Origin: Eledone cirrhosa
Taxonomy: Eukaryota
Assembly (NCBI GenBank): GCA_964016885.1
Contig: OZ024742.1
Location: 319,982,001 to 320,046,000 of the forward strand
DNA: 64,000 bases
Direction of reading: 5' to 3'
Part shown: piece after piece, positions 14,891-60,357 of the stretch
How positions within the stretch are numbered: the first letter of the stretch is position 1
Layout of the letters: every line of letters begins with the position of its first letter
Notes under the pieces: generated by a model
The model's input: only the letters and a program-made list of their open reading frames with translations
Databases searched by the model: none
What the model was told of the DNA's origin: nothing
Position numbers and translations under genes: made by a program

Positions 14891-15947
14891 GTTTCTTTTA
14901 TTTGCCACTAGGGCATCAAAAGTGGGACAAGTACAAAGGGGGGAGTTTACACAAAAAGGCGTCCTCAATAAGGAGGAGGCAATAACAAAATATAAAAATA
15001 AAATAAGATATAACAAAAAATAAAATTTTTAACAAAATCCTCAATAGAGAGGAGGCGCCTTGGGGGGTCGCACACACCCCCGAAAAAAGTGTGCAACCCT
15101 TTTCCTCAGGAGCACAGAGAGGGGGTGCTCCCTCGTTCCTTCCTCTTTTCCACCTACAGGCTTATGTAGAGAGAAGGCCCATTCACACGGGCCATTCTCG
15201 CCACTTTCACCCACCTTTCATAAAAACGACTGGGGTGCAGCACCTCTCTCTCCATCCTGATCCTTCTTCCGAAATGATATCGGAAGAAACGGACCAGTTG
15301 TTGGCCAGAGAGAAAGGTGCCTGACCTCAGTCCTTTCAGACGCGTCCACCATACAACCTCTTTCGCCATGGCTATTACGCACAGAAACACCGCCTCTGCT
15401 TCATCTTTGAAGGGGGGAGGCGGCTTGATCATTACAATAGACTCGGTGGTCAACCGGATCGGTCCCACCCTTGACAGCAGTTGTTCGACATAGCCCCACA
15501 GATCGGCTACGCCCGAGCAGTGTACCAATGCGTGTGCAACGGTTTCCTCGTCGCACACGCATCTGGGACAGATCTTTTTGGCGGGGTCCCTACCCGGGCG
15601 CCCGTGTCTGTAGAGCCTTTCTCGAACGGGTAAAGCCCCTCGGTAGCACTGCCAGGCCAGGGACTTCTGGAAGTTGTCCATAGGTCCCGGGCTGAATGTC
15701 CTACCGAACAGGCCGGCCAGTTCGTCCTCCTCCATGTCTAGGGCTTCTCCGAGGGCGTCGTCGCACCTGCTGCGTACCAGCCCTCTATAGAATGTTGCGG
15801 TGGAGTCTCCACTGATAACCGGATCCGCCTGCCAGAGGGCGGTGAGCGCCTGGGCACACTCAGTGTGCCAGGCGCCCAGTTTTCTCGGTCTTTGCTTGAC
15901 CCAGGATTGCAGCTCGGTGAGTGAGACGAGTCTGGGAAAGGTTCGTC

Positions 15948-15948
<1 letters not shown>
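14891..15948 (-). mobile_element. Tx1-clade LINE copy B: 5'-truncated, ORF2 C-terminus plus 3' UTR
   Basis: ORF 15154-15735 with zf-RVT-type CPRCVCDEETVAHALVHC, ends ARVNGPSLYISL*; 3' UTR ends AATAAAAGAAAC then (TATC)n; 5' break abuts (TATC)n. Confidence 0.95.
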
Positions 15949-15979
<31 letters not shown>

Positions 15980-15988
15980 GAGATAGAT
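15949..15988. repeat. (AGAT)n tract between copies B and C
   Basis: About 10 units with one AGAG variant. Confidence 0.95.
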
Positions 15989-16202
15989 TTCTTTATTTAC
16001 CATAAAGGTATAAAAAGAAGGGACAAATACAAAGGGGGAGTTTACATAAAACCGAGTAAAAATGGTATAAAGTGAAAATAATCAAAAACAACCTCAAAAG
16101 GGAGGGGACGTGATGGGGGTTGCATACACCCCCGAAAAAGTGTGCAATCCTTTGCCCGGGGTGCACATGGAGAAAGTGCTCCCCTCTCCTTCACTTCTTT
16201 AC

Positions 16203-19200
16203 CTACAGGATGGTATACAGAGAAGGCCCATTTACACGAGCCATTCTCGCCACTATCACCCACCTTTCATAAAACTGCCTGTGGCCAAGCACCTCTCTCT
16301 CCATTCTTATCCTTCTTCCGAACTGATATCGGAAGAAGTAGACCAGACTATGGCCAGAGAGGAAGTTGCCTGACCTCAGACCTTTCAATCGTGTCCACCA
16401 AACAACCTCTTTCAACATGGCTATTACGCACAGAAAAACCGCCTTTGCTTCCTTTGTGAAGAGGGGAGGCGGCTTGATTGTTATCACGGACTCGGCGGTC
16501 AATCGAATCGGCGCCACCCGCGACAGCAGTCGTTCGGCGTAGCCCCACAGATCAGCCACGCCCGGACAGTGCACCAATGCGTGCGCAACGGTTTCTTCGT
16601 GACGCACGCATCTAGCGCAAATCTTTTTCTAGGGATCCCTGCCCGGGCGCCCGTGTCTGTAGAGCTTTTCTCGAACGGGTAGAGCCCCCCGGTAGCACTG
16701 CCAGGCCAGTGACTTCTGGAAGTTGTCCATTGGTCCCGGGCCGAAAGTCCTACCGAACAGGCTGGCCAGTTCGTCCTTTTCCATGTCCAGCGACTCTCCA
16801 AGAGTGTCATTGCCCCTGCTAGCCACCAGCCCTCTATAGAATGACGAGGTGGATTCTCCACCGATGGCCAGGTCCGCTTGCCAGAGAGCCCTGAGCGCCT
16901 GGGCACACTCAGTGTGCCAGTCGCCCAGTTTTCCGGATCTTTGCTTGACCCAGGACTGCAGATCGGTGAGCGAGACGAGTCTCGGAAAGGCTCGTCTCAC
17001 GATCGGAGCCCACACCGGTTGACCCGTGAGGAATACCTGTAGGTGCCGTAGCCTTAATGCGTGCCTACGCATCATCAACCACGGCATTCCCAGCCCTCCT
17101 TTCGAAGGTTGTTGGCAGCAGATGGATCTTCCAAAGAAATTGAAAGAGCATGCGTTCCATAGTGGTGAGTGCTTCCTTAGGGCAAGGCACGACAGTCAGG
17201 CGGTAGTAGGTGACGGACGCTATGTAAATGTTCGCCACCTCTGCCCGACCTTTCAGGGACAGCTTACACTTGGCCCATTTCTGGGTCAGTGCAAACACCT
17301 TGCTCGTAACCTCGCCCCAGTTCTTTTCCACCTGGAGGTCCGGTCCAAACCAGACCCCAAGCAACTTCACCGGGCCCTCCGTCCAGTGTCCGACGACACC
17401 GTCGGGAGGCATCGGTCTGCCTCTTCACGTTCCGAGTTGCAGCCCGATGGATTTTTCCCGGTTCAGTTTCGCTCTTGACAACCTTTCGTATTCCTCCAGT
17501 AAGGTACCGATCGCCTCGATCTCCGAGTCGGTCGATACCATTTCTGTTACGTCATCGGCGTAGGCCGACAGCGCTTTGCTCAATCCTGGTTCCAGGGGGA
17601 TGCCCTGCAACAACTCCAACTTCCTCAGTAAAGGCTCGAGAGTCAATACGTACAGAAGGGAGGAGAGAGGGCACCTGGATCGTGTGATTTCGAACGGCTT
17701 CGAAAGGTAACCGTTCACCTTGATCCTAGAACAGATGTGGTTGCTATGTAAGGCAGTGATCCAGCCTCTGAAAACAGGACCGAACCCAGCCGCCGCTAGC
17801 ACCGCATTCAGGTAACCATGGTCGACCCTATCGAACGCCTTAGACTGATCCAAGTTGATCAGGGCCCCACCGAAGCCGGGTTTGTTGCCAACCCTCTCTA
17901 TGATGTATCGCATGAGGTGGAGGTTGTCGAGAATGGACCTGGATGGGGTAGCACATGTCTGCGCATCTCCCACCCGGCTACCCACGACAAGCGCCAACCT
18001 CTTTGCTAACACCTTGGCCAAAATCTTTAACTCTGTGTTTAGCAGGGTTATGGGCCGAAAATTATTTATACTATCCCCCTTGTTCTCGTCCTTCCTCACC
18101 AGCGAGACTACGCCCTTGGCTACAGAACAAGGAATTCTCCCGTTCTGCTGCCAATTGCAGTAGACTGCTTCGAGGAGTTCGGAGAAGAAGACCGGCATTG
18201 CTAAATAAAGTTCGTAAGGTATACCATCGAGACCTGGAGATTTGCGTCTGCTGCATTGGCTCAGCGCATCCCCGATCTCATCAGCCGAGATTGGTCCCTC
18301 GCAGGACTCTGCCTCTTCGCTCGAGAGACGCGGCAGGCCGTCGAGGTATGGACCGAAATCCACGTCCCCGCCCGGACCTTCGCCTCCCCCGAACAATCGG
18401 GCAAAGTGCCTTTGAAAGGCCTCGCACATCTGCTTAGGCTCCCGGATCACACGTCCATCCTCGTCTTGCAAAGACCGGATGGTGGATCGATTTCCACTCT
18501 TAGCTTCTGTCACGCGGGCCCAGCCAACGGCTTTGGCCCCCTCATTACCTAGAGCACGTATTTTACTTCGAATGACGCAGCCTTCGTGCTTTGCATAGAA
18601 AAACTGGCTCAAGGCCGTTCTCGATGCCAGCACTCTGGCCACATCTTCGCTCTTGATTGCCTCTTCTAATTTACCTGTTAATTCTTTCTCGTTCCTATTC
18701 CTATCAGCAGCTAACATCTTGCTATAACTTATTGATTCTGTTCTAATCTCTCTTTTGAGAGATGCCCACCATCGGTTGTTGACGATTGCACCCGTCAACC
18801 TCTCCTTAACTAACCTGCTAATCCGGTCTCTGTAAGCCTCTTTTGCCGGTAAAGACAAATTAAGTTTCCAGTAACCGGGACCCTGTCTATGTGTTCTCTC
18901 GAGGTTGACTACGCAGGTCACTAATTTGTTATCTGTTTAGCCAACCGTGAGCATTTCTGGACAGCTTAATATGTCCCTATCCTTACTTCTAACTAAGAAT
19001 CTATCTAAGTACGATCTAGATCGACCACTGTGGTTCGTCAAAGTCCAGGTTGGCACAGTTGGAAGATCTAGTCGATATCTATCGACCAAGTTAAAACGGT
19101 CGAGTAACCCCTTGAGGCTGTTACACCCCCTCTATTAGGAGATGCTCCTGCATAGTCCCAACGTGCATCTAGGATGTCATTCCAGTCCCCCGCTAGAAGC

Positions 19201-19607
19201 AGGGAACGCGACGTTCCCAGAAAAGTCTCCAGACGCTGGAAGAAGTCGGGCCGTTCAGCTCCGAAAGGGGAGTAGACGGCGACCAGTCTCAAGGCCGCAC
19301 CTCCACTACTGCCAACGTCTAGCACCAACAAACGACCTTCCGGGTCCGAGTGAACAACCTGTACGGCGAGACCCAGGTGTTTTTCCAGCAGTACGACAAC
19401 CCCACCCCCACCTCCAGGTTGACAGAGAGATGCGTGCACCTCAAAGTCATCGAAGGTAGGGGCCAGCTGCCGCACGATGCTGATCCGAGTCTCACAGATA
19501 ACCATTACATTTATACCACGTGACCTGAGGTCATTTAGAAGCTTTGCTTGCTTCCAAGTTGAACCCAGGCTACGTGCATTCATACATTCTACTCTTAACA
19601 CATCCAT
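16203..19607 (-). pseudogene. Copy C ORF2 (APE endonuclease - reverse transcriptase - zinc finger), disrupted
   Basis: MDVLRVECMNARS start, GDWN, KSPGLDG, FRPITLLN, DQSKAFDRVDH and AYADD motifs, split over several ORF fragments. Confidence 0.93.
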
Positions 19608-21524
19608 GTGGGCGGCAAAGCCAAAGGAGAGTGTAGAGCCATACCTTTCTGCTTCCCGGGGTTCGGGTCGCACGACTTCCATGGGGTCGGGGATGTTGGG
19701 TGAAGGGGTGTCTTGTGGTGGTGTGGGGTCGTCAGTGTGTGGTGGGGTTTGGGTGTTTGGAGTTGTGTTGGGGGGAAGCTTTTTAGGAGGACGCGGTTTA
19801 TGGGTTTGACAGAGGGTGGTCCTACGTCCTCCTTAAAATCCTTTTTTAGTTTTTGGTAGAGGTTCATTGGGGCCATTATTAATTTTAATTGTGGGTTGTT
19901 TTCTGAAAAAACAAAGTTTACCCCTTCGGTTTGTACCGAAGGGTTATTGTTTATGAGTTCATTTAATTTATTATTGTTTCTGTTGATGTAAGTATAGTGT
20001 AATGTCTTTTTGTCGGATGGTGTGAGTGTTTCGAAGAGGAGAGGAGCAGGTTTGGTTTTGTTTGTTGCTGGAGGAGTGTTTTGTGTTTTGTTGGATTGTG
20101 TTGACATTTGGGTAGGGGCTGTTTGGCCTTGTGTGTTTTGCACATGTTTTCTTTTTTTCCTTTTAATCTGTCTGAAGGACTCCGTTTCTTCCTCCGAATT
20201 CGTTGGGTTATCTTCAGTGTTGGAGGGAAGAGGTATGTTTGCTGGTAGTGTTTCCGTGTTAGTTTTCTTTGTGGGGGAGATGGATGTCACTATGTTAGAC
20301 TGTGTTGTGTGTTGTGGCTGTGGTGGTTGTGTTGTTTTATTGAGTGAGGGGTTGGGTGGGACTGTGTTTTGTTTTGGGGTAATGTGTTGTGTCTGTTTGT
20401 GCTAGGGACGGGTTGGGTGGGACTGAGTTTTGTTGTTTGTTTATCTGTTGTGGTGGTGGTGGAGCTGGTGTTGGTAGCAGGGTTTTCTTCTTGTTGAGTT
20501 GGGGTCAAGCCGCCTTCAGGTGCCCTCTGCCTGCACAGATATGACAGGACGGCCTTCTCCCCTCCACGCTAATGTTTATATACCCGTGGCCCTCTAATAG
20601 GGTTCTGTCGGGTATTTGGGCAATGCGTTCAGGCTTCATTTGCACTACAAGTTCTATACCTGTTCCACTGAACGCATTGCCTGTGGTTTTCCCAATGGAA
20701 ATCACGTTGTCATTCGCTGGGTCGATCAAGCCAGCTATGAGCCAGCAGTAGTCCATATCTGGCATCATCGCATCCAGCCATATGCGCTGAGTTCTTTTAC
20801 CCATATAAGATGGATTAAAGGTAAAATTTGTCGAACGAATCGGCGACAAAGCATATTTTTTCGCCGCCGATTCGTTCTTCATAATAATGGCCAGGCTTCC
20901 ATAGAGCCTGTCTCTTCTTATGAAAGTGGCTTCATTAAATACTTCTCTAAGTACCGCTTTAATTTCTACTTGTGTTGGTTGTTGCGGCTTTTTTGAGATG
21001 TTGTTGATGGTGCGGAAAACGACCGTCCGACTTTCAATATCTTTGGTGAGTTCTTGGGGCATTTTTATCGACAAGGCTCCATTTTCCCCTTGAGTTATGA
21101 ATTGTTTGGCGTTTTTTATTCTTTGTGCCACATCTGAAATATTTTCAGGTATGTACGTTAAAGATTTTTTTGTTGTTTGTGCAAATGAGATGTTATTGGT
21201 GTTGACTTTGTCGTCTGTTTTGCTTTCTGTTATGATGTTGTTGTTTTCAAATGTTATTTTTGTGTTTATTGTTTCTTTGTTTGTGGTATTAATATTGTCA
21301 TGCAATTCTTTCAAATTTTTTTTGTTGTTGGAATCAATCTCCAGATTTGTGTTTTCGTTGTCATTTTTCTCCGCACATTCGTCTGTTTTTATTTTATTTT
21401 TTCTTTCCTTCTCTATGACGTTAGTTCGGAAGGAAGGGGGGACTAAAGCGTGCGAGCTTACAACTCTTACCGCTGCCCCCCCCCCCCCACCACCACCACT
21501 ATTTTTGTTAGCTTCATTTAACAT
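19608..21524 (-). pseudogene. Copy C ORF1 (gag-like, CCHC knuckle), disrupted
   Basis: CHICAGRGHLKAA* (last Cys codon is TGA); downstream PQLNKKKTLLPTP and YTYIN...KPINRVLLK match ORF1 of D and E. Confidence 0.9.
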
Positions 21525-21750
21525 TTCTCCCAGACGATTGAAATTTTATGCAACAAAATTTCTAAAAACAGGTTTTTCACCCTTGGGAGGGGCGAAAATG
21601 AGCTGACCCACCGCCTGACAGTTCAGACGGGGGGGTCAAGCTACACAATAGTATCAAAATTAATATTAAACTTACAAAATATCCGCAATAAATTGGAACA
21701 AAACTTCTGCGCGAAGTGAATTACGTCTACGCTATCGAACAGACGACAGC

Positions 21751-21757
21751 TAGATCA

Positions 21758-21792
<35 letters not shown>
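21751..21792. repeat. (GATA)n tract between copies C and D
   Basis: tagatcaatagatagata... Confidence 0.95.
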
Positions 21793-22031
21793 TATTTCTT
21801 TATTAGCCACAGGGGCACAAAAGAAGGGGACAAATACAAAGGGGGAAGTTTACATACAATAAAAACGTGTAAAATGTTATCACAGATGGAATTTAAAAGT
21901 TAGTCGATTTTCCCCAATAGAGGGAGACAGTTTATATGGGTAACACAGACCCCCGAAAAAAATGTGCAACCCTCATCTCCAGGAGTACGAAGAGCTTGTA
22001 CTCCTTTCCTCTCCTCCTCCTTTTCCTCAAC

Positions 22032-25000
22032 CTACAGGCTGATATAGAGAGAAGGCCCATTCACCCGGGCCATTCTCGCCACTTTCACCCACCTTTCATA
22101 AAACTTGCTGGGGTACAGCACCTCTCTCTCCATCCTGATTCTTCTTCCAAAGTGGTATTTGAAAAAAAGAATCAGTTGTTGGCCGGAGAGAAAGGTGTCT
22201 GACCTCAGCCCTTTCAACCTTGTCCACCATACAACCTCTTTCGCCATAGCTATCACACAAAGGAAAACCGCCTCTCCTTCGTTTTTGAAGGAGGGTGGCG
22301 GTTTGATCATGACAATGGACTCGGTGGTCAACTGGATTGGTCCCACCCGCGACAATAGTCGTTCCACATAGCCCCACAGGTCAGTGACGCCCGGGCAGTG
22401 TATGAATGCGTGCGCGACGGTTTCTTCGTCTCGCACGCACCTCGGACAGATCTTTTTTGCAGGGTCCCTGCCCGGGCGCCCATGTCTGTAGAGCTTGTCT
22501 CGAACTGGTAGAGCTCCTCGGTAGCACTGCCAGGCCAGGGACTTTGGGAAGTTGTCCATCGGTCCCGGGCGGAAGGTCCTACCGAACAGACTGGCCAGTT
22601 CATCTTCCTCCACGCCTAGAGTTTCACCGAGCGCGTCGTCGCACTTGCTGCGGACCAACCCTCTATAGAATGACGAAGTGGAGTCTCCACTGATCGCCGG
22701 GTCCGCCTGCCAGAGGGCTGTGAGCGCCTGAGCACATTCGATGTGCCAGTCGCCCATTTTCCTCGGTCTCTGCTTGACCCAGGACTGCAGCTCGGTCAGC
22801 GAGACGAGTCGTGGGAAGGCTCGCCTCACGAACGGGGCCCACACCGGTTGTCCGGTGAGGAATACGTAGAGATGCCGCAGCCTGAGCGCGTGTTTGCGCA
22901 TCGTCAACCACGGCATCCCCAGCCCTCCGTTAGAAGGGTGTTGGCAGCAGATGGATCTTCTTACCAAAGGAGCCCGCCTCTTCCAAAGGAATCGGAAGAG
23001 GGCGCGCTCCATTTTGGCGAGCGTTTTGGCTGGACAAGGCACGACGGTCAAGCGGTAGTAGATGGCGGACGCTATAAAAGTGTTCGCCACCTCCGCTCGA
23101 CCTTTCAAGGATAGTTTGCACTCGGCCCACTTCTGGGTGAGTGCAAACACCTTGGCCGTCACTTCGTTCCAGTTCTTCTCCACCTGGAGGTCCGGACCAA
23201 ACCAGACCCCGAGCAGCTTTACCGGTCCTTCCGTCCAGCGTCCGACGACGCCATCGGAAGGCATCGGTCTGCCTCTCCACGATCCGAGTTGCAAACCGAT
23301 GGACTTGTCCCGGTTCAGCTTCGCTCCTGTGAGACTTTCGTATTCCTTTAGTAAGGTGCCGACTTCCTCGATTTGCGAGGCGCTCGACACCATTACTGTC
23401 ACGTCGTCGGCGTAGGCCGACGCCGCTTTCCGCAGTCCCGGTTCCAGAGGGATGCCCTGCAATAGCTCCAGCTTCCGCAGTAGTGGCTCGAGAGTCAGTA
23501 CGTACAGAAGGGAGGAGAGAGGGCATCCCTGTCGAATGGATCGCGTAATATGGAACGGCTCCGAGAGGTAACCGTTCACCTTGACCCTTGAGCAGATGTT
23601 GCTGTTGTGCATTGCAGCAATCCAGCCCCTGAACACGGGTCCGAAGCCTGCCGCCTCGAGCACCGCATCCAGGTAACGATGGTCAACCCTATCGAAAGCC
23701 TTAGACTGATCCAAGTTGATCAGGGCCCCACCGAAGCCGGGTTTACACCCTACCCTCTCTATGATGTATCGCATGAGGTGGAGGTTGTCGTGTATGGACC
23801 TGGTCGGGATCGCGCATGTCTGCGCTTCTCCCACCAGGTTCTCGACGACAAGCGCCAGCCTCTTTGCCAACACCTTGGCCAAAATCTGTAACTCTGTGTT
23901 TAGCAGAGTTATGGGCCGGAAGTTGCCTATGTCATCCCCCTTATTCTCGTCCTTCCTGATTAGTGTGACCACGCCACCGGTTACAGAATTGGGAATTCTC
24001 CCGTTCTGTTGCCAGTTGCAGTAGACCGCTTCCAGGAGACCGGAGAATAAGTCCGGCATTGCTACGTAAAATTCGTAGGGTAGACCGTCGAGACCTGGAG
24101 ATTTGCGTTTGCCGCATTGGCTCAGCGCGTCCCCTATCTCAGTGGCTGAAATCGGCTTTTCGCAGAACTTCGCCTCGCTGTCCGAGAGTCGCGGTAGGCC
24201 GTCGAGGTATGGACCGAAATCCATAGCCTCTCCCGGCGCGCCGCTCCCCCCGAACAGCCGAGCAAAGTGCCGCTGAAAAGCCGCACACATCTGCTTCGGC
24301 TCACGTATCACGCGTCCGTTTTGGTCCTTCAAAGACCGAATCGTGGACTTGTTGCCACTTTTTTCCTCCGTCACTCGGGCCCAGCTAACAGCTTTGGCTC
24401 CCTCGTTTCCCAGAGCACGTATTTTGCTTCTGACAACGCAGCCCTCGTGCTTTGCGTCGAAGAACTGGTCCAAGGCCGTTCTCGTTGCTAGCACGCTGGC
24501 TACGTTGCCACTTCTAATAGCCTCTTCTACTTTATCTACCAGTTCCTTCTCGGTTCTATTTCTATCTAACGCTAATTCTTTACTAAAAACTATCGAGTCT
24601 AATCTAACTGCCCTCTTGAGAGAGTACCACCATCTGTTGTTGACAATGGCCCCTGTCAAGTGCTGTTTAACTAAAGTGCTAATCCGTCTACTGTAGGCTT
24701 TGCTTGTCGGTAACGACAAGTTCAGCTTCCAGTAGCCGGGTCCTTGTCTATGGGTTCTATCAAGGTTGGCCATGCAGGTCACTAGTTTGTGATCTGAATA
24801 GGCAACCATGAACATTTGTGGACAGCTTAACATGTCCCTATCCTTATTTCTAACTAGAACCCTATCTAGGTACGATCTAGATGTTCCGCTACGATTACTC
24901 CACGTCCACAGTGGCGCAGTCGGAAAATCTAGTCGATATCTATCGGCCAGGTCAAATCGGTCGATTAACTGTTTGAGGCTGTTACACCCCCCTTTATCGG

Positions 25001-25469
25001 GACATGCTCCCACATAGTCCCAACGTGCATCTAGGATTCCATTCCAGTCCCCCACTAAAAGCAAGGAGCGGGACGTTCCCAGAAAAGTCTCTAGACGTTT
25101 GAAGAAGTCTGGCCGCGGTGTCCCGGATGGGGCATATGCGGCCACCAGCCTGAACGCTCCACCTTCACTACCGTCAACGTCTAGGACCACCAGTCGACCC
25201 TCCGGGTCCAGATGTACCGTCTGTGTTACGAGGCCCAGGTGTTTCCGCAGCAAAACGGCAACTCCGCCCCCACCCCCCGGTTGACAGAGAGATGCGTAGA
25301 TCTCAAAGTCATCGAAGATGGGGGCCAGCTGTCGCTCGTCGTGGATCCTGGACTCGCAAATGGCTACCACATCCAAACTGTGCGACCTGAGGTCGTTTAA
25401 GAGTTTGCCCTGTTTCCAGGGCATCCCCAGGCCGCGTACGTTCACACATCCAACTCTTATATTGGCCAT
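22032..25469 (-). CDS. ORF2p: APE-type endonuclease + reverse transcriptase + C-terminal zinc finger (L1/Tx1 type)
   Basis: NVRGL, ESR, YAP, GDWN, SYLDR, SDH (EN); GYWKLN linker; KSPGLDG, RPITLLN, KAFDRVDH, RQGCPLS, YADD, LLGV (RT); GGLGMP; CPRC..EETVAHAFIHC. Confidence 0.97.
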   Translation of the reverse strand: MANIRVGCVNVRGLGMPWKQGKLLNDLRSHSLDVVAICESRIHDERQLAPIFDDFEIYASLCQPGGGGGVAVLLRKHLGLVTQTVHLDPEGRLVVLDVDGSEGGAFRLVAAYAPSGTPRPDFFKRLETFLGTSRSLLLVGDWNGILDARWDYVGACPDKGGCNSLKQLIDRFDLADRYRLDFPTAPLWTWSNRSGTSRSYLDRVLVRNKDRDMLSCPQMFMVAYSDHKLVTCMANLDRTHRQGPGYWKLNLSLPTSKAYSRRISTLVKQHLTGAIVNNRWWYSLKRAVRLDSIVFSKELALDRNRTEKELVDKVEEAIRSGNVASVLATRTALDQFFDAKHEGCVVRSKIRALGNEGAKAVSWARVTEEKSGNKSTIRSLKDQNGRVIREPKQMCAAFQRHFARLFGGSGAPGEAMDFGPYLDGLPRLSDSEAKFCEKPISATEIGDALSQCGKRKSPGLDGLPYEFYVAMPDLFSGLLEAVYCNWQQNGRIPNSVTGGVVTLIRKDENKGDDIGNFRPITLLNTELQILAKVLAKRLALVVENLVGEAQTCAIPTRSIHDNLHLMRYIIERVGCKPGFGGALINLDQSKAFDRVDHRYLDAVLEAAGFGPVFRGWIAAMHNSNICSRVKVNGYLSEPFHITRSIRQGCPLSSLLYVLTLEPLLRKLELLQGIPLEPGLRKAASAYADDVTVMVSSASQIEEVGTLLKEYESLTGAKLNRDKSIGLQLGSWRGRPMPSDGVVGRWTEGPVKLLGVWFGPDLQVEKNWNEVTAKVFALTQKWAECKLSLKGRAEVANTFIASAIYYRLTVVPCPAKTLAKMERALFRFLWKRRAPLVRRSICCQHPSNGGLGMPWLTMRKHALRLRHLYVFLTGQPVWAPFVRRAFPRLVSLTELQSWVKQRPRKMGDWHIECAQALTALWQADPAISGDSTSSFYRGLVRSKCDDALGETLGVEEDELASLFGRTFRPGPMDNFPKSLAWQCYRGALPVRDKLYRHGRPGRDPAKKICPRCVRDEETVAHAFIHCPGVTDLWGYVERLLSRVGPIQLTTESIVMIKPPPSFKNEGEAVFLCVIAMAKEVVWWTRLKGLRSDTFLSGQQLILFFKYHFGRRIRMEREVLYPSKFYERWVKVARMARVNGPSLYISL

Positions 25470-25502
25470 GTTGGTGCTGAAAAGTTAAAAGAGGAAAAGA
25501 GA

Positions 25503-27419
25503 TCACTCACCCTTCGCCTCCTGGGGACCAGGCCGCACGATTTCCATGGGGGTGTTGGAGGGGTTGTCTGGATGGGTGGTGGTTTCCGGCGGGGTGGGGA
25601 CGCAGATGTTTGGTGGGGTGGGGTCTGGTGGAATGGGGGTGTCTGGGGTGGGGAGGCATTTGAGAAGGACGCGGTTGAGTGGTTTCACGCAGGAATTCCC
25701 CACATCCTTCTCAAATGTTTCTTTTAGGGACCTATAAGTTTGTATAGGGACCCTAATCAGTTTTAGGTTCATTTTTTTGCTATTTTTTATAGAGTGGGCG
25801 AAAGTTTTCCCTTCGGTGAAAACCGAAGGGTCGTTCGTAATGGTCTCCATTAGTGTTTTGTTTTCAGTGTTTATGTAAGTGTAAGTGTAATTTTCTTGTG
25901 TTGTGTTTGTTTTTGTCTGTAGTTCTTGTGTGTGCTTTCGTTTTGTTGTAGGTATTTTGTTTTCAGGAGGTGGGGGTTTTGTTTGTGATATTTTTGTTGT
26001 TTGTGTTGGTGGTTGTATGTTTGTGGTAGTGTTTGCTGGTTTTTTGCTTTTGTGATGTCTTTTCTTTCTTTTCGAGCGATGGGGTTCTCCCTCGTCTTCA
26101 CTGGGTGATGGCGAGATAGCCTCATCTGTTGTATCGTCTGTGTGATTGGGGAGGGGTATGTCTTGGGGAGCTGTTGTGTCTGTATGTGATTTTGCAGTGG
26201 TTTTAGGTGGAGTGGGGTTGGGTGGGACTGTGTTTGTTGTGGTTATTTTTGTGTGTTGGTGTTGTTGTTGTAGTGGTGGTGTTGGTGGTTGTGTTGTTTT
26301 GATGGGTGTTGGCAGAAGAGCCTTTTTTTGGTTCATTAGTTTAGGACAGGAAGCCCTCAGGTGACCCCTGCTAAAGCAATGGTAACATGAAGGCCGCCTA
26401 CCCTCAACCGAAAGGTTTATGTAGGTAAGTCCGTCCAGGAGTACACGCTGTGGGATCATAGCTATTCGCTCTGGGCTCATTTGCACCAGAACTTCAATGC
26501 TAGTCCCATTGAATACATCTCTGGGGGACTTGCCTACTGACAGTATTCTGTCTTCATCAAAATTGATGAAGCCGCACAGTATCCACCATATGTTCACCTT
26601 TGGTGTGACACTTGTGATTCTGATCTTTTGTGTCCTTTTTCCCATGTATGTAGGGAAAAAGGTGTACAGGTTGGATACAATTGGCGACACAGAGTAATTT
26701 TGGGCCGTCAATTGATCCTTCATCAGTACCGAAATACTCCCAAAAAGTTTGCTTCTTTGAATGAATGCAATATCATTCATTGAATCTTTGAAAACCAGTT
26801 CAATATCTTTCTGTGACAATTGGACTGGTTTTCGGGTAGAATTGGAAACTGTCCTAAAAACTATCGTTTTGAGAGCAGTTTCCTTGCGAATTTCTACCGG
26901 AGAATTGATGCTGAAAGCACCATTTTTTTCGAAGGTGACATATCTCTTAGCGTCCTTTAAAAGGTGTTCAGCATTTGTTATGTCGAGATATATCAATTGT
27001 TCTTTCTTTTGAACTTTCTCCGCAAAGGAGATTTTTGGTTTCTTTGTGGAATCCGTATTGGTGGTGTTGTCATTATTGTTGTTATTCTTGTTGTTATTCT
27101 TGTTGTCACCGATGTTGGTATCATCCGTATTTTCCTTGGTGTTGTTGTTGTCTTTGATGCTGGTGTTATTGGCGTTGTCTTTATTTTTTTCTTTGTTGTT
27201 GTTATCATTGTTGCTTTTATCATCATTATTGGTTTTGCTGTTATTTTTGTTGTCATTGAGCTGTTTGGTGTCATTTGTGTTGTTTGGATGTGAATTCGTT
27301 TTTTTATTTTCATTTTGTCTTTCCATCTCTATAGTATCTAGTGAAGAAGACGTTGTTGACTGCGAGCTTTGTAGACTTACCGCCTCTCCACCACCATTAT
27401 CGTTGGACGCAGCGTTCAT
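25503..27419 (-). CDS. ORF1p: gag-like nucleic-acid-binding protein with Asn-rich N-terminus, CX2CX4HX4C knuckle, Pro/Thr-rich linker, basic NLS-like patch and conserved C-terminal domain
   Basis: EGRRPSCYHCFSRGHLRASC; KRKKRHHK; homologous to ORF1 of C and E. Confidence 0.93.
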   Translation of the reverse strand: MNAASNDNGGGEAVSLQSSQSTTSSSLDTIEMERQNENKKTNSHPNNTNDTKQLNDNKNNSKTNNDDKSNNDNNNKEKNKDNANNTSIKDNNNTKENTDDTNIGDNKNNNKNNNNNDNTTNTDSTKKPKISFAEKVQKKEQLIYLDITNAEHLLKDAKRYVTFEKNGAFSINSPVEIRKETALKTIVFRTVSNSTRKPVQLSQKDIELVFKDSMNDIAFIQRSKLFGSISVLMKDQLTAQNYSVSPIVSNLYTFFPTYMGKRTQKIRITSVTPKVNIWWILCGFINFDEDRILSVGKSPRDVFNGTSIEVLVQMSPERIAMIPQRVLLDGLTYINLSVEGRRPSCYHCFSRGHLRASCPKLMNQKKALLPTPIKTTQPPTPPLQQQHQHTKITTTNTVPPNPTPPKTTAKSHTDTTAPQDIPLPNHTDDTTDEAISPSPSEDEGEPHRSKRKKRHHKSKKPANTTTNIQPPTQTTKISQTKPPPPENKIPTTKRKHTQELQTKTNTTQENYTYTYINTENKTLMETITNDPSVFTEGKTFAHSIKNSKKMNLKLIRVPIQTYRSLKETFEKDVGNSCVKPLNRVLLKCLPTPDTPIPPDPTPPNICVPTPPETTTHPDNPSNTPMEIVRPGPQEAKGE

Positions 27420-27636
27420 AACGTAATCAAAATTTTACAATATTTTTTCCAAGATTCGATGGAGAAAAATTTTTTAAATGGATATTCCGCCCCTGAAGGG
27501 GCGAAAATGAGTTGACCCACCACCTGAAGGTCCAGACGGGTGGTCAAGTTACACAATGATATAAAATTGAACTAAAAACTCACGTTTTTTCCTTACATAA
27601 ATTAACGGAAACTTCTCCGCGAAGTGACACACGACT

Positions 27637-27647
27637 GATAGAGAGAG

Positions 27648-27716
<69 letters not shown>
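27637..27716. repeat. (GATA)n tract (with short (GA)n) between copies D and E
   Basis: gatagagagagagatagata... Confidence 0.96.
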
Positions 27717-27717
<1 letters not shown>

Positions 27718-27948
27718 ATTTCTATTTATTTGCCACGAGGGCACAAAAGGAGGGGACATTTACACAGTGGGGGAGTTTACATAAATCGAGTAAAGAAAAA
27801 AGGAATAACAATAATAATATAACAATAAAAAGTCCTCAAAAGGGAGGGGGCGTGTTGGGGATTGCACATACCCCCGAAAAGTGTGCAACTCTTTTCGCGG
27901 GGGAAGCCCAGAGAGGAGGCGCTCCCCCTTTCCTCTTCACTTCTTCAC

Positions 27949-30900
27949 CTACAGAACAATGTAGAGAGAAGGCCCATTTACACGGGCCATTCTCGCTTCT
28001 TTCACCCACCTTTCATAAAACTGTCTGGGACCAAGCACTTCTCTCTCCATCCTGATCCTTCTTCCGAAGTGGTATCGGAAGAAGTAAACCAGGTGATGGC
28101 CGGAGAGAAAGTCACCCGACCTCAGACCTTTCAGGCGCGTCCACCACACAACCTCTTTCATCATGGCTATTACGCACAGAAAGACCGCCTCTGCTTCATT
28201 TCTGAAAGGAGGAGGCGGCTTGATGTTCACCACAGACTCGGCGGTTAATCGAACCGGCGCCACACGCGACAGCAGTCGTTCGACGTAGCCCCACAGATCG
28301 GCAACGCCCGGGCAGTGTACCAGTGCATGCGCAACGGTTTCCTCGTCGCGCACGCATCTGGGACAGATCTTTTTCACGGGATCCCTGCCCGGGCGCCCGT
28401 GTCTGTAGAGCTTTTCTCGAACGGGCAGAGCCCCCCGGTAACACTGCCAGGCTAGGGACCTCTGGAAGTTGTCCATGGGTCCCGGGCCGAAAGTTCTACC
28501 GAACAGGCTGGCCAGTTCGTCCTCCTCCATGCCTAGCGACTCTCCAAGGGTGTCGTCGCCCCTGCTAGCCACCAACCCTCTATAGAATGTCGAGGTGGAT
28601 TCTCCACTGACAGTCGGGTCCGCTTGCCAGATAGCCGTGAGCGCCTGGGCACACTCGGTGTGCCAGTTGCCCAGTTTTCTCGGTCTTTGCTTCACCCAGG
28701 ATTGCAGTTCGGTGAGCGAGACGAGCTGTGGGAAGGCTCGCCTCACAAACGGGGCCCACACCGGCTGACCGTTGAGGAATACCTGTAGATGCCGTAGCCT
28801 CAATGCGTGCCTACGCATCAACAGCCACGGCATACCCAGCCCTCCTTTCGAAGGGTGCTGGCAGCAGATGGATCTCCTCACCATGGGAGGCCGCTTCTTC
28901 CAGAGGAACTGGAAGAGCATGCGTTCCATGATGGTGAGCTTTTCCTTGGGGCAAGGCACGACGGTCAGGCGGTAGTAGATGACGGACGCTATGTAAGCGT
29001 TCGTCACCTCCGCCCGACCTTTCAGTGATAGTTTGCACTTGGCCCACTTCTGGGTCAGCGCAAACACCCTGCTCGTCACCTCGCCCCAATTCTTCTCCAC
29101 CTGGAGGTCCGGTCCGAACCAGACCCCGAGTAGCTTCACCGGGCCCTCCGTCTAACGGCATCGGTTTGCCCCTCCACATTCCGAGTTGCAAACCGACTGA
29201 CTTGTCCTGGTTCAGCTTAGCCCCCGTCAGCCTTTCGTATTCCTCCAGTAGGGTGGCGATCGCCCCGATTTCCGAGGCGTCCACCACCATTACTGTTACG
29301 TCGTCGGCATAGGCCGAGACCGCTTTGTGCAATCCCGGTTCCAGGGGTATGCCCCGCAGCAACTCCAACTTCTGCAGCAGTGGCTCGAGAGTCAATACGT
29401 ACAGAAGGGAGGAGAGGGGGCACCCCTGTCTGATGGATCGGGTGATTTGAAACGGCTCCGAGAGGTAGCCGTTTACTTTAATCCTAGAGTAGATGTTGCC
29501 ACTGTGCATGGCAGAAATCCAGCCCCTGAAAACGGGTCCGAAGCCCGCCGCCGCTAGCACCGCATCCAGGTAACCATGGTCAACCCTATCGAACGCCTTA
29601 GATTGATCCAAGTTGATCAGGGCCCCACCAAAGCCGGGTTCGTAGCCAACCCTCTCTATGATGTATCGCATGAGGTGGAGGTTGTCGTGAATGGACCTGG
29701 ACGGGATAGCGCATGTCTGCGCGTCTCCCACCAAACCACCCACCACAAGCACCAACCTCTTCGCCAACACCTTGGCCAAAATCTGTAACTCTGCATTCAG
29801 CAGAGTTATGGGCCTAAAGTTACTTAAGTCGTCCCCCTTGCTCTCGTCCTTCCTCACTAGCGTGACCACGCCCTTGGTCACAGAACAGGGAATTCTCCCG
29901 TTCTGTTGCCAGTTGCAATAGACAGCCTCGAGGAGTTCGGAGAACAAGACCGGCATAGCTAAATAAAGTTCGTATGGTAGACCATCGAGACCCGGGGATT
30001 TGCGTCTGCTGCATTGGCTGAGCGCTTCCCCGATTTCAGTGGCTGTGATTGGCCTTTCGCAGCACTCCGCTTCGCCGCTCGAAAGACGCGGTAGACCGTC
30101 GAGGTATAGACCGAAGTCCACATCCCCGTCCGGCCCCCCGCCACCTCCGAACAGTCGAGCAAAGTGCCTTTGAAAGGTCTCGCACATTCGCTCAGGTTCA
30201 AGGATCACCCGTCCATCCTGGTCTCGCAAAGACCGAATGGTGGATTTAATTCCACTCTTGGCTTCTGTCACGCGGGCCCAGCTAACAGCTTTGATCCCCT
30301 CGTTTCCTAAAGCACGTATTTTACTTCGGACAACGCAGCCTTCGTGCTTCGCGTCAAAGAACTGGCTCAACGCCGTTCTCGTCGCTAACACTCTGGCTAC
30401 GTCTCCGCTCCTAATCGCCTCTTCTAGTTTATCTGTTAACTCCCTTTCCTTCCTATTTCTATTCGCCGCTAGTTCCTTACTGTAACCTATCGAACTTACT
30501 CTAATCTCTCTCTTTAGAGATACCCACCACCTACTGTTGACGATCGCTCCCGTCAACCGCATCTTAACTAAGCTACTAATCCGGTTTCTGTAATCTTTCT
30601 TTGTCGGTAAGGACAAGTTCATCTTCCAGTAACCGGGACCCTGTCTATGCGTTCTATCAAGGTTGACCACGCAGGTCACTAATTTGTGATCTGAATAGCC
30701 AACCATGATCAGTTCTGGACAACTAAATACTATCCTTACTCCTAACCAAAAACCTATCTAGGTACGATCTAGATTGTCCATTGCGGTTTGCCCAGGTCCA
30801 GGTTGGCGCAGTTGGACAATCTAGTCGAAATCTATCGACCAGGTCGAATCGATCGAGTAACCCCTTGAGGCTGCTACACCCCCCTCTATCGGGACATGCC

Positions 30901-31367
30901 CCTGCATAGTCCCAACGCGCATCTAGGATTCCATTCCAGTCCCCCACTAAAAGCAGGGAACGCGACGTTCCTAGAAAAGTCTCCAGACGCTGGAAGAAGT
31001 CGGCTCTTTCCGCCCCGAAGGGAGCATAAAGACCGACCAGTCTGAAAGCCCCGCCTTCACCGCCTCCGACGTCCAGCACCAGTAATCGACCCCCCGGGTC
31101 CGAGTGAACAATCTGTACGTCGAGAGTCAGACGTTTATCCAGCAGTACGGCAACTCCCCCCCCCCCCCCGCCTCCGGGTTGACAGAGAGATGCGTGCATC
31201 TCAAAGTCATCGAAGGCGGGCGCCAGCTGTCTCACGCTGCTGATCCGACTCTCGCAAACAACCATCACATCTATACTTTGTGACCTGAGGTCACTTAGAA
31301 GCTTTGCTTGCTTCCAAGCTGAGCCCAGGCCACGCGCGTTCAAACAGCCAACTCTCAATTGATCTAT
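27949..31367 (-). pseudogene. Copy E ORF2 (EN-RT-zf); start apparently ATG>ATA, stop at 30723-30725, frameshifting deletion at ~29150
   Basis: ATA GAT CAA TTG AGA GTT GGC aligns with ATG GCC AAT ATA AGA GTT GGA of D; RQGCPLS and AYADD present; VVGRWT segment lost at a GACGG repeat. Confidence 0.93.
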
Positions 31368-33191
31368 TTTGGTGTTGAAAGTGAAGAAAGAAAAGCACTT
31401 ACCTCTCCGGGTTGCGTAATTTCCATGGCATCAGGTGTGTTGGGTGGAGGGATGTTTTGTGGTGGTGTGGGGGTACACGTGTGTGGTGGGGTTGGGGTAT
31501 TTGGAGTTGTGTCAGGGAGAGGGGCGGTTATGGGGAAATCTTTCAAGGGGACGCGATTCAACGGTTTTAAACAGGGGGGGCTCACGTCCCGTCTAAATTG
31601 TTCTTTTAAGGAACGATAAAGCTCCAGAGGGACCTTTATCATTTTTAAATGGGTGAAGTTCTCTGTTGAGATAAAGTTTGGCCCTTCGGTCTGCACCATA
31701 GGGTTATTGTTTATTAATTTAACCAGTTTTTTGTTTTCTTTATTTATATATGTGTATTGCAACGTCTTTTTTTGTGATGCTGTCAATGTTTCGGAGAGGG
31801 GAGGCGCAGATTTATTTTTGTTTGTTGAGGGTGGGGTGTTTTTGATTGGAGTTGGTGTTTGTGTGTGGGTTATTTGTGGTGTGCTGGGTGTGTGTTTTCT
31901 TTTTTTTCTTTTAACTTGTCTGAAGGCTTCTCCTCCTTCTTCTTCAGAAGTTGGGGGAAACTCTTCAGCGCTAGGTGGGAGGGACGTGTTGTGTGGTTGT
32001 TTTTTTTTTGCGGGAGGGGTAGATTTGTTACTGTTTTTTTTATTGTTTGTTTGGAATGGGTTTTGTGGTGGTGGTGGTAATGTTTGTGTCGTGCTTGTGG
32101 TTGGTGATGGTGGTGTTTGTGTTGTGGTTGGTGGTGGTGATTTTTGTGTCGTGCTTGTGTTTGGTGCTGGTGGTGGTAATGTTTGTGTTGTGTTTGTGGT
32201 TGGTGGTGTCTGTATTTTGTTTGCTGTGTGTGGTATTAGTGTATTTTTGGAGGTGGGTGGTGTTGGTGTACTGTTTGTGGTGGGTGTGGGAAATAGTCCT
32301 TTTTGGGGGATACGTTTCGGGCAGTTAGCCTTAACGTGTCCCCTTTCCATGCATAAATAGCATGCTGGTCTTCTCCCCTCTACAATTATGTCTATTGGGG
32401 TAAGGTCATCCAGCCAGATGCGATCCGGGATTTGTGCTATTCTTTCGGGCCTCATTTGGACTAGTATGTCGAGGCCCATTCCCAGAAACGCATCTCCAGT
32501 TGCCTTCCCCATTGACAGCATTGTGTCTTCGCCCATATCAATGAAGCCAGCAATAGCCCACCAGAAGTCCATTGTGGGCAGCATTGTTTTTACTTTTACT
32601 CTCTGTGTTCTTCTACCCATGTAGGAGGGATAGAAGCTATATGTTGTCGATGAGAGTGGGCTTAGGGAAAGCTTCTCCGCCGTTTCCCTGTCTCTTGTTA
32701 GGACCGAAATGCTGCCATAGAGTCGGTCCTTTCGTATGAAGAGAATATTCTTCATATAGTCTTTTAGGACTAACTCTATTTCCATTTGGCTGGGCTGTGC
32801 TGGCTTTCTTGTCTGGTTCAGTATAGTTCTGTAGAGAACTGTGTTTTCTGCTCTGGCTTTCTTGAATTCTGGGGGGGGAGTTAATGGAAAACATTCCGTT
32901 CTCCCCCAAAACAATGTGTTTCTTTGCTTCGGCCAGTTTTTCTCTGGCGGCAGTTAGGTCAATTGGTGTGTATGTAATGGATTGTTTTGTTTTCTGGGCG
33001 AAAGTTGCCCTGTTGTTATTTGTATTATTTTCTGTTTGTTTGTTTTCTGTTTGTTCATTTTCCTTAACATTTGTTTTTTCCTTTTCTTTGTTTGTTTCAT
33101 TGTCTAATTTTGTTGTAATTATTTTTTGTTCTTCAGACTTGGGGGGCGTGGCAGAGCTAATGGCAGACATGTCTGCCATCTTTTCCGCCAT
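31364..33191 (-). pseudogene. Copy E ORF1, single frameshift in homopolymer at ~32871-32878 (could be a sequencing error)
   Basis: MAEKMADMS...ENGMFSINSP / PEFKKARAENTVLYRT...CYLCMERGHVKANC. Confidence 0.9.
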
Positions 33192-35144: not shown

Positions 35145-35593
35145 GATTATATATATATTTATATCTGTATTTTTAACCGCTGGTCAATCAATGATAAACA
35201 TTGATTGCCAAATAAATTAACTATGGAGATATAAAAGATACAGAAGCGAAAACCAACCCAAACCAAACAGTGAGTGTGTTCTGTAATTATTTCTGGCAAT
35301 ATTATAACAATATGACCCTCCCCAAGTATAACAATATATATGTATGTATAAATATATATATATATATAAACAATTAAGTTAAAAATGTACATCTACATAT
35401 GCATACTGAAATACTAGTGTGTATATGAATATACACACGTATACATATGTAGGTGTAACAAGTCTTTCACTGGTTGCTTTACTGTGAGCAGCCCAGCTAT
35501 TCTGTATGTAAACACACAGACAAACCGGTTTTTAGAGTCATACTGGTTTTCGGGGGAACACCTTCCCTCTATTCTCCAGAAGGCCAGACAAGG

Positions 35594-35638
35594 AATATTG
35601 AACTAGTTTCGTTGTTGTTACAACTCATCAGCAATATT
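35594..35638 (-). ncRNA. Type I minimal hammerhead ribozyme
   Basis: Reverse complement of the motif at 36242-36286. Confidence 0.85.
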
Positions 35639-36241
35639 TACCTATCTACCGGCCCTTCTGGAGAATTGTAAAAGCACATATCGTTATATGCTTTTTCTAT
35701 GAAAATTAGTAGTGGGCAGACTAATTTGCATAGAGTGTGAGTACGCACCGGTTCAGCGGAGACGACAAAAACATATAACGAAACGAAATTAAATTTCGCT
35801 TCGTTTGTAGTTCAATATTCCTTGTCTGGCCTTCTGGAGAATAGAGGGAAGGTGTTCCCCCGAAAACCAGTATGACTCTAAAAACCGGTTTGTCTGTGTG
35901 TTTACATACAGAATAGCTGGGCTGCTCACAGTAAAGCAACCAGTGAAAGACTTGTTACACCTACATATGTATACGTGTGTGTATTCATATACACACTAGT
36001 ATTTCAGTATGCATATGTAGATGTACATTTTTAACTTAATTGTTTAAGCGTCAGTCATACAAAAGTGAGTTACAAACGAAGCGAAATTTAATTTCGTTTC
36101 GTTATTTGTTTTTATCGTCTCCGCTGAACCGGTGCGTACTCACACTCTATGCAAATTAGTCTGCCCACTACTAATTTTCATAGAAAAAGCATATAACGAT
36201 ATGTGCTTTTACAATTCTCCAGAAGGGCCGGTAGATAGGTA

Positions 36242-36286
36242 AATATTGCTGATGAGTTGTAACAACAACGAAACTAGTTCAATATT
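36242..36286 (+). ncRNA. Type I minimal hammerhead ribozyme, predicted cleavage GUU^C after 36279
   Basis: AATATTG-CTGATGA-GTTGT(AACA)ACAAC-GAAA-CTAG-TT^CAATATT: 7-bp stem I, intact core, stem II, palindromic stem III AACTAGTT. Confidence 0.87.
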
Positions 36287-36575
36287 CCTTGTCTGGCCTT
36301 CTGGAGAATAGAGGGAAGGTGTTCCCCTGAAAACCAGTATGACTCTAAAAACCGGTTTGTCTGTGTGTTTACATACAGAATAGCTGGGCTGCTCACAGTA
36401 AAGCAACCAGTGAAAGACTTGTTACACCTACATATGTATACGTGTGTGTATTCATATACACACTAGTATTTCAGTATGCATATGTAGATGTACATTTTTA
36501 ACTTAATTGTTTAAGCGTCAGTCATACAAAAGTGAGTTACAAACGAAACGAAATTTAATTTCGTTTCGTTATTTG

Positions 36576-36631
<56 letters not shown>

Positions 36632-38510: not shown

Positions 38511-38589
38511 ATTTGTTTTCAGGTATGGTCGGTGTTTGTTGTCATTAAGGTGGATGACAAAATGATTTTGTCGTTTCAATGACTGGGTT

Positions 38590-39100
38590 GATACGAACCT
38601 TCCTAATGCAAATTTCCTTCATGTTAACTTAGACCTAACCATATCTTCGTATAAACCTTACCATAAGCCTAACGAAAAATTGAAATATATTAATAAAGCC
38701 TCGTGTCACCCCACTGCAGTTTTTAAAAACTTAGTTTCTAATATTAGTCGTAGGATCTCAAATCTATCAGCAAGATAAGATAGATAAGGCAGGCCCTCCT
38801 AGATAGTGATTTTAAAGACAAAATTAAGCACACATCTAATTATTCTCAACCCAACCATACTAAAAATTCTTACAGAAAAATAAGAATTATCTGATTCTCA
38901 GCCCCTGTTTTCTTTAGTGTAAAGACTAATGTAGGTAAGAAGTTTTTACATTTAATAGATAGATATTTCCCACCACAATATCGATACAGTAAAATATTCA
39001 ATCGCTATTCCGTTTATCTGACAAGATGTCAAAAAACAGTAGGGGTGCCGTCATTTTGATTGTACCCTGAGCTGATTGATATCGAAACAATTGTAATATA
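38590..39100 (+). mobile_element. Penelope-like element remnant (RT thumb and linker, internally deleted) ending in a degenerate HHR
   Basis: NFLHVNLDLTISSYKPYHKPNEKLKYINKASCHP...NISRRISNLS and II*FSAP..SVKTNVGKKFLHLIDRYFP..SKIFNR are typical PLE motifs; then CTGACAA-GATGTCAA..TTGATATC-GAAA-CAATTG-TA. Confidence 0.8.
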
Positions 39101-40090: not shown

Positions 40091-40260
40091 TAAAAGAGAC
40101 AATAAATTAGAGATTAATTGCTGGATACATGTATGATATTTATGGGCTAGGGATGACGAGACATTTGATAAACAAGCGTTTATCAAATGTCTCGTCATCC
40201 CTAGCGAATAAATATCATACATGTATCCAGCAATTAATTTCTAATTTATTGTCTCTTTTA
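40091..40260. repeat. Near-perfect 170-bp palindrome (83-bp arms, AAGC loop)
   Basis: TAAAAGAGACAAT...TTTGATAAAC-AAGC-GTTTATCAAA...ATTGTCTCTTTTA, about 3 mismatches. Confidence 0.93.
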
Positions 40261-54215: not shown

Positions 54216-54399
54216 TACACATACGCACACGCACACACATACATAGATGCCTATATATATATATATATATATATATTTCGTTTCTGAATTTGTTTAGCAA
54301 GATTCTTTATCTGAAATCGTGTGTTGAAACCGATATTGTTATACTTTGGGAGGGTCATGTTGCCAATAAGAAACACACGCACCAGTCGCTTTCACTTCA

Positions 54400-55282
<883 letters not shown>

Positions 55283-59659: not shown

Positions 59660-59692
<33 letters not shown>

Positions 59693-59696
<4 letters not shown>

Positions 59697-60357
59697 AATT
59701 AAGTTAAAAAAGTGTACATCTACATATGCATACTGAAATACTAGTGTGTATATGAATACACACACGTATACATATGTAGGTGTACCAAGTCTTTCACTGG
59801 TCGCTTTACAGTGAGCGGCCCAGCTATTCTGTATGTAAACACACAGACAAACCGGTTTTTAGAGTCATACTGGTTTTTCGGGGGAACACCTTCCCCCTAT
59901 TCTCCAGAAAGCCAGACAAGGAATATTGAACTAGTTTCGTTGTTGTTACAACTCATCAGCAATATTTACCTATCTACCGGCCTTTCTGGAGAATTGTAAA
60001 AGCACATATCGTTATATGCTTTTTCTATGAAAATTAGTAGTGGGCAGACTAATTTGCATAGAGTGTGAGTACGCACCGGTTCAGCGGAGACGATAAAAAC
60101 AAATAACGAAACGAAATTAAATTTCGTTTCGTTTGTAACTCACTTTTGTATGACTGACGCTTAAACAATTAAGTTAAAAATGTACATCTACATATGCATA
60201 CTGAAATACTAGTGTGTATATGAATACACACACGTATACATATGTAGGTGTACCAAGTCTTTCACTGGTCGCTTTACAGTGAGCGGCCCAGCTATTCTGT
60301 ATGTAAACACACAGACAAACCGGTTTTTAGAGTCATACTGGTTTTTCGGGGGAACAC
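59693..60357 (-). mobile_element. Second locus of the 467-bp retrozyme-like repeat (~1.4 tandem units); HHR at 59922-59966 (-)
   Basis: Near-identical to 35368-35809; unit restarts at ~60163; same left end adjoining (TA)n. Confidence 0.9.

Follow-up and report, generated by a model that had tools for sequence, protein, structure and literature searches.

The locus raises two questions: whether a 467-nt repeat bounded by hammerhead motifs is a retrozyme unit that could be released as a circular RNA, and which machinery could have placed it in the genome.

Structure of the window locus

Self-comparison of the window (the whole 64,000-nucleotide stretch of DNA that was analysed) bore out the 467-nt period previously proposed from the letters alone, with a 99.4% match between positions 35808-36115 and 36275-36582. 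The description of this locus as a tandem unit did not hold: positions 35367-35809 are the reverse complement of 36071-36513 (99.1% over 443 bp), and what is present is an inverted arm followed by 1.66 direct units, set in a (TA)n tract (Table 1). The sequence-only reading had noticed neither this inverted arm nor the pair of fixed 3' ends; the true connection with Penelope-like elements (PLEs) lies in these features. The unit is non-coding, as had been claimed (read as a loop, the unit has no ATG frame longer than 19-20 codons), and the four hairpins listed by that reading all lie inside it.

Table 1. Features of the insertion at 35367-36582 and of a second family member in the window
Feature	Positions	Strand	Remarks
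Left (TA)n target tract	35333..35366	.	
Inverted arm, 0.95 unit	35367..35809	-	From unit position 259 to fixed 3' site A (unit 234) against (TA)n; self-comparison
Complete type I hammerhead motif of inverted arm	35578..35649	-	Predicted cut between 35601 and 35600
Joint of arms, 2-nt overlap	35808..35809	.	Removes the hammerhead core before 35813
Direct arm, 1.66 units	35808..36582	+	From unit position 463 to fixed 3' site B (unit 303) against (TA)n; self-comparison
One complete 467-nt unit	35813..36279	+	Numbering starts at the predicted cut; predicted circular fold 69% paired
Complete type I hammerhead motif	36231..36302	+	Predicted cut between 36279 and 36280 (GUU triplet); enclosing further helix at about 36214-36309
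69-nt 'tail' between sites A and B, with 13-bp hairpin	36514..36582	+	B end only
Right (TA)n target tract	36583..36630	.	
Second family insertion, single arm, 1.43 units, ending at site A	59692..60357	-	One hammerhead; about 97% identical

The type I hammerhead with a palindromic stem III was confirmed on both arms, where Rfam HH9 matched 36231-36302 (+) and 35578-35649 (-) with 38.2 bits each (E 7.7e-7), under the gathering score of 52; a descriptor scan recovered the same two motifs and a third one in the copy at 59692-60357. The motif is composed of a 7-bp stem I, CUGAUGA, a 5-bp stem II, GAAA, a 2-bp palindromic stem III and the GUU triplet, and two copies are predicted to co-fold through the stem III palindrome. 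Compensatory changes were found in stems I and II between the 467-nt family, its subfamilies and a sister family. The self-complementarity of the unit also stood, folding being far beyond chance both in linear (z -10.0, 100 shuffles) and in circular mode (z -12.0, 40 shuffles). In a fold alignment of 14 sequences 96.5% of the cells of the whole unit paired, and covariation was modest, as 4 of 126 pairs changed on both sides and 209 of 500 shuffles scored as high; the alignments used for covariation include one row with a rearranged 3' end (L056).

Two cleavage sites had been said to delimit one monomer at this locus. The site before 36280 carries its GUU triplet, whereas the one before 35813 lacks the catalytic core because the inversion joint sits at 35808-35809, leaving only the last 5 nt of the core. 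Since a transcript of either strand would contain one hammerhead, the window copy cannot free a 467-nt monomer by double cleavage, and a read-through of the locus would instead fold as a hairpin of about 440 bp. The window locus is an ordinary short copy of a known element class, and likely a dead end: a short product with one hammerhead per strand.

Several other features were recorded in the window. Positions 15154-32953 (-) are occupied by three LINEs in head-to-tail order that have AP endonuclease, RT and zinc-binding domains; one RT frame is open over 1,150 codons. Tracts of (GATA)n or (TAGA)n, near 15950, 21760, 27640 and 33400, bound each LINE, and the array resembles the outcome of repeated insertion by an element that targets microsatellites. 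Long minisatellites with periods of 41 bp and 51 bp at 1-14270, with Thr-codon-rich open frames of 700-1,000 codons on the + strand, may represent either a mucin-like gene or a non-coding satellite. Hammerhead-like motifs of other PLE-type ends, some of them degenerate, were seen by scan at 48940 (+) and 59569 (+) and by eye at about 35105 (+) and about 40850 (+). A near-perfect 60-bp inverted repeat at 40113-40237 gave weak scores against several miRNA families, all far under the gathering scores; the miRNA-family Rfam matches were rejected as TA hairpins.

Two fixed ends and their pairing across the genome

A genome copy number had been proposed as a check, and the pattern search returned 9,294 exact hammerhead cores of the 467-nt family in the 3.0-Gb genome (control 0). 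A wider motif detected 39,657 cores (control 2), including those of the sister family. This sister retrozyme family, of about 430-460 nt (L062, L063, L083-L112, L142), has a GUA triplet, the same hairpin order as the 467-nt unit and its own two ends about 55-60 nt apart, and it outnumbers the 467-nt family. The longest 467-nt arrays reach about 31 units, each returning to the same unit, and many loci of the family display a feature of non-LTR retrozymes that the window locus, with its one hammerhead per strand, does not. Higher-order periods in four arrays (L052, L059, L140 and L167) indicate that some arrays grew or were shuffled at the DNA level. A dimeric circle was weighed as the source of the alternating 467- and 480-nt units of L059 and rejected, the 13-nt duplication being on one arm only. 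The unit was also contained in contigs from four sequencing runs of unknown kind, which are uninformative on expression.

Throughout the family the arms start at variable 5' positions and stop at one of two sites that lie 69 nt from each other, A at unit positions 224-235 or B at 302-304. Exact patterns for ends abutting (TA)n were found genome-wide at 2,222 B and 1,273 A sites, with controls of 0. Among inverted insertions chosen after inspection, all 44 combined one A with one B end; L055 (a duplicate of L054), L057, L165, L030 (four arms) and L087 (unclear) had been left out beforehand, and L022, read as B/A, was skipped by the script and lies outside the 44. A blind test on facing ends within 20 kb, taken from the first places listed on contig 1, gave A/B for 36 of 38 pairs against 19 expected (p 2.7e-9). 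Its two exceptions were a B/B pair formed by the neighbouring insertions L177 and L178, and an A/A pair within a four-armed locus. Exceptions to the A/B rule among the loci read are L214, a true A/A insertion; the four-armed L030/L215; L057 and L165, in which the left arm stops at unit position 18, contiguous with the start of the right arm; and the unclear L087. Several copies that look one-armed (L218, L221 and L231) possess a very short A arm, of 8-20 nt. Target duplications of 12-14 bp could be recognised at interrupted TA tracts in six clear cases of the 44 (L016, L021, L059, L060, L064 and L088); some match was present in 14 of the 44, those beyond the six being doubtful, and such duplications are invisible in pure (TA)n.

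Paired ends of this kind are what a Penelope enzyme would be expected to leave. In vitro, both strands of the target are nicked and extended by a PLE protein, whose synthesis begins at two sites inside the RNA, and the interval between these sites is the genomic tail (PMC11167929, Frangieh et al.), and a tail at one end is described as often or optionally present in PLE insertions (PMC8557442, Craig et al.; PMC3846280, Arkhipova et al.). The window itself contains PLE remnants, which the sequence-only reading had placed near 38590 and 54400 and which were located at 38581-38790 (+) and 54277-55134 (-). The first belongs to a Hydra-type family (RWK, DKT and CxCX5C motifs; 27,507 candidates in the genome) with intact 719-codon frames elsewhere (L071, L079); a second family, with GIY-YIG, has 33,854 candidates. 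The other remnant comes from the 3' terminus of a coding PLE that is young and abundant (L123-L139), has a hammerhead of its own and follows the paired-end rule with a 58-nt tail; its frame in L123 is open over 1,257 codons. Pfam gave no match to the two full PLE frames, which were named by motifs from PMC8557442. Among 17 fetched loci of the coding GIY-YIG PLE, 12 of the 13 with two ends had them paired as in the retrozyme, with a 58-nt tail. Having two fixed ends that pair as those of a coding PLE do, the 467-nt retrozyme therefore bears the PLE insertion footprint. The earlier proposal of a retrozyme family mobilised by PLEs was accordingly retained at the family level, where a non-coding tandem hammerhead repeat carries signs of Penelope-type mobilisation, and the release of a monomer from the window locus itself was given up; the two remnants are present, but they belong to other families with other ends and are doubtful as the mobilising source. 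Another small insertion with inverted structure lies in (TA)n at L079:4440-4740, nested upstream of a Hydra-type frame, and one of its arms has a tail of about 70 nt.

The template and the route of insertion

The reading that we consider probable is that of a protein-free 467-nt hammerhead non-LTR retrozyme, put into TA microsatellites by a borrowed Penelope-type reverse transcriptase-endonuclease that copies one unit-length, probably circular RNA from both cut ends. Multi-unit arrays elsewhere would be transcribed; adjacent hammerheads, paired by way of the palindromic stem III, would excise monomers for closure by a host ligase, by analogy with known retrozymes; and the structured RNA would undergo A-to-I editing, as an excess of A>G variants suggests. 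The PLE protein would then nick both (TA)n strands, whose 3' ends would prime at A and at B, 69 nt downstream, the ends being fixed by observation and the priming modelled on PMC11167929. Each cDNA would make a variable number of rounds and the free ends would be joined by end-joining repair, a presumed route to the inverted structure that is observed. Twin priming by a Penelope enzyme is favoured because the tail corresponds to the stretch between two RT start sites and because both strands are extended in vitro (PMC11167929).

The nature of the template was approached through variants classified in 97 loci, a variant counting as fixed when all copies at its locus have it and as rare when no more than two loci do. 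Among 42 rare variants fixed at a locus, 20 were A>G on the sense (hammerhead) strand and 5 were T>C (p 0.004); the corresponding figures were 15 and 2 for fixed variants on both arms, and 15 and 5 when loci were counted (p 0.04). Variants of single units were balanced (31 A>G vs 34 T>C of 353). ADAR enzymes prefer a 5' U or A neighbour, which was found at 15 of 18 A>G sites, a trend only (p 0.11). The A>G bias points to an edited RNA monomer that would have been copied repeatedly.

Two haplotypes were traced genome-wide, one with 69 copies at 7 places and the other with 670 copies. They are inherited sub-lineages and not single-insertion events, and on the same counts an origin of the L181 and L253 edits within those two insertions was rejected. 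In the first sub-lineage 52 of 54 full units are identical across four arrays, and three clustered A>G changes plus an added A separate it from its nearest relative; between that relative and the second sub-lineage there are five A>G, one C>T and likewise an added A. The very young sub-lineage with 52/54 identical units forms long two-armed arrays (G000:C1:30.83 Mb, C1:322.55 Mb, C6:54.09 Mb and C18:30.95 Mb) and is the best source for cloning an active donor. Each sub-lineage needs one edited unit to have been amplified to whole arrays, for which excision and rolling-circle copying provide a simple account; assembly polishing could inflate the homogeneity of the arrays.

The strongest competitor keeps twin priming and replaces the circle by an uncut, linear multimeric transcript, for whose insertion the hammerhead would be dispensable. 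The PAc protein uses unprocessed RNA in vitro (PMC11167929), which by analogy would speak against the circle, and 8 of 9 predicted Xenopus retrozyme dimers gave no cleavage in vitro (10.64898/2026.07.22.740005). The arms cross many cleavage sites and none begins exactly at the cut: no pile-up of 5' ends was seen at the predicted cleavage site and no arm started at position 1, while by hand count 6 of about 42 position-ordered 5' ends fell within about 20 nt of the site, with about 3 expected. Homogeneous parent arrays exist for a traced haplotype, so an array can derive from a parent that was already homogeneous, and reading such a parent as a linear multimer accounts for any one later insertion just as well. 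Against this stand the clustered A>G changes fixed in every unit of whole sub-lineages: the units of a linear multimer would be edited, and marked, separately, and each lineage therefore needs a bottleneck of one unit, followed by amplification. The hammerhead core has also been kept, with compensatory changes, across families that are about 70% alike in column identity. A linear template appears unlikely on this evidence. The preferred unit-length, probably circular template has a more specific form, which we advance tentatively as a possibility short of probable: at one (TA)n cut, a pair of Penelope enzymes would prime each strand at its own fixed site, the two sites not being interchangeable, on one and the same RNA circle edited by ADAR; both polymerases would roll round this circle, and sub-lineages would arise mainly by its A-to-I editing and not by DNA mutation.

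The two arms could alternatively come from a single cDNA: the first arm would fold back or prime itself to yield the second, with resolution at the remaining fixed site, a mechanism put forward for Penelope copies in inverted arrangement; self-priming is the reading given in PMC3846280. Both arms of an insertion share one haplotype, for which fold-back accounts: divergence between arms was 1.0% within and 7.9% between insertions in 15 position-ordered loci, and 0.8% and 2.2%, respectively, in 29 high-identity loci. Fold-back also agrees with the overlap at 22 of the 44 joints and with the 38 of 44 loci in which one arm could be contained in the other. It is at odds with the inserted bases at 17 joints (the remaining 5 showed neither), and with the finding that either arm may be the longer one (A in 14 loci, B in 30), arm lengths being uncorrelated (rho -0.11). 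In six of the 44 loci each arm has a part that the other lacks, among them L180, whose two arms are both shorter than one unit; this count is close to the 8.4 ± 2.3 expected if the arms were independent, although later loss of a single unit could mimic non-containment and blur this test. Two cDNAs primed on one template and joined by repair fit the arms better, and fold-back is in our view very unlikely.

The reading of the unit as the pLTR of a coding PLE, with the loci as its truncated copies, had been named by the sequence-only reading as the case that would overturn its claim; it was looked for and not found. In their ends, tail and target and in having an inverted arm, the loci agree with PLE pLTRs, and around L010:930-1370 (L003/L010) a retrozyme array is joined inverted to the 3' end of a Hydra-type PLE, whose hammerhead likewise has a palindromic stem III and a GUU triplet. 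This junction, a single hint, may represent a chimeric twin-priming event or a deletion between neighbours. The arrays of up to about 31 units, in turn, come back to the same unit, and no RT and GIY-YIG frame was found between repeats of it. Comparison of the unit with 31 Hydra-type PLE loci by blastn gave no match besides one separate retrozyme insertion, and a sensitive search of both PLE sets gave, among the matches listed, TA-rich matches and separate copies only. The stem III palindrome was found in other hammerheads (253 matches; 30 loci scanned), and in the nine loci read, all mutated copies or isolated motifs, there was no adjoining PLE frame. None of 16 unpaired B-end loci ran into a PLE frame, and no ends shared with an autonomous PLE were seen in the two PLE families examined or by pattern search. 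By exact-match patterns, 65 hammerheads with a deviant upstream sequence were all explained by indels, joints or microsatellites, and so were 76 B sites with a shifted downstream sequence (main subfamily only, shown to 80 nt), with no recurrent foreign sequence in either set. The pLTR reading is largely refuted for close copies and is highly improbable overall; a diverged or unassembled coding partner is possible. Spread as a satellite at the DNA level, by unequal crossing-over or extrachromosomal DNA circles with an inherited but idle hammerhead, would suit the higher-order and other DNA-level duplications of older arrays, but it is practically untenable, being contradicted by the strand-biased A>G spectrum and by copies dispersed in their thousands, whose 3' ends are fixed, whose 5' ends vary and which show short target duplications.

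Comparison with known retrozymes and Penelope-like elements

As described in PMC7229834 (Cervera and de la Peña 2020) and 10.64898/2026.07.22.740005 (Li, Clavereau and Pollet 2026), animal non-LTR retrozymes share all their sequence-level traits with the 467-nt element: dispersed head-to-tail arrays, a non-coding unit of <50% GC with one canonical type I hammerhead, strong self-pairing, thousands of copies, PLEs in the same genome, target duplications of >4 bp and no LTR structure. The unit is longer than the 170-400 nt of the former source and lies inside the 51-972 bp range of the latter. In both, mobilisation by PLEs is proposed from co-occurrence and pLTR homology, and circles are proposed as templates; unlike these published retrozymes, the 467-nt family yielded no homologous pLTR. 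Two-armed insertions, paired fixed ends and editing marks were not found in the text consulted of the two papers, whose supplements and figures may bear on this, and a literature search, with most subscription journals outside its scope, returned no report of paired ends or editing marks in retrozymes.

The window hammerhead is canonical in its helix sizes, with a helix I of 7 bp plus an enclosing helix and a helix II of 5 bp, and so departs from the minimal type of PLE pLTRs, in which helix I is short (4-5 bp) and helix II long (7-8 bp) according to PMC4209133; helix sizes of the latter type were not seen in the 467-nt unit. Both have a short palindromic helix III predicted to need a dimer, and canonical metazoan hammerheads with such helices are likewise expected to act as dimers (PMC4209133).

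Endonuclease-positive PLEs resemble the family in their tandem plus inverted insertions, which are truncated at the 5' side and tailed at one end, in targets that are AT-rich or (TA)n, and in a hammerhead upstream of two start sites (PMC11167929, PMC8557442, PMC3846280). The 467-nt element differs from them in having no ORF, in a tail of 69 nt instead of 30-40 and in arms that can both be long multimers; the tail is described as optional in those papers, whereas two-armed insertions of the family nearly always combine a tailed and an untailed end. Chlamys elements such as MRC1 are, like this family, non-coding, PLE-dependent and inserted as head-to-tail multicopies (PMC8557442). The same source describes the Naiad/Chlamys clade as being without canonical hammerheads, unlike the 467-nt family, and its non-autonomous elements as resembling their autonomous partner at the 3' end, a resemblance for which no counterpart was found here.

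The return of retrozymes to the genome is put forward in the cited papers as a proposal and not as a demonstration. To this question the 467-nt family brings predicted RT start sites A and B, their near-obligate pairing, which fits the two-site initiation of the Penelope protein in vitro, and editing-like marks that would trace copies to one RNA unit. If the circle were true, it would constitute a natural rolling-circle reverse-transcription system writing multimers into a microsatellite, with RNA editing driving the evolution of a mobile element. The 467-nt element takes its place among the animal non-LTR retrozymes as a new member, and it was likely mobilised by a Penelope enzyme that primes both target strands.
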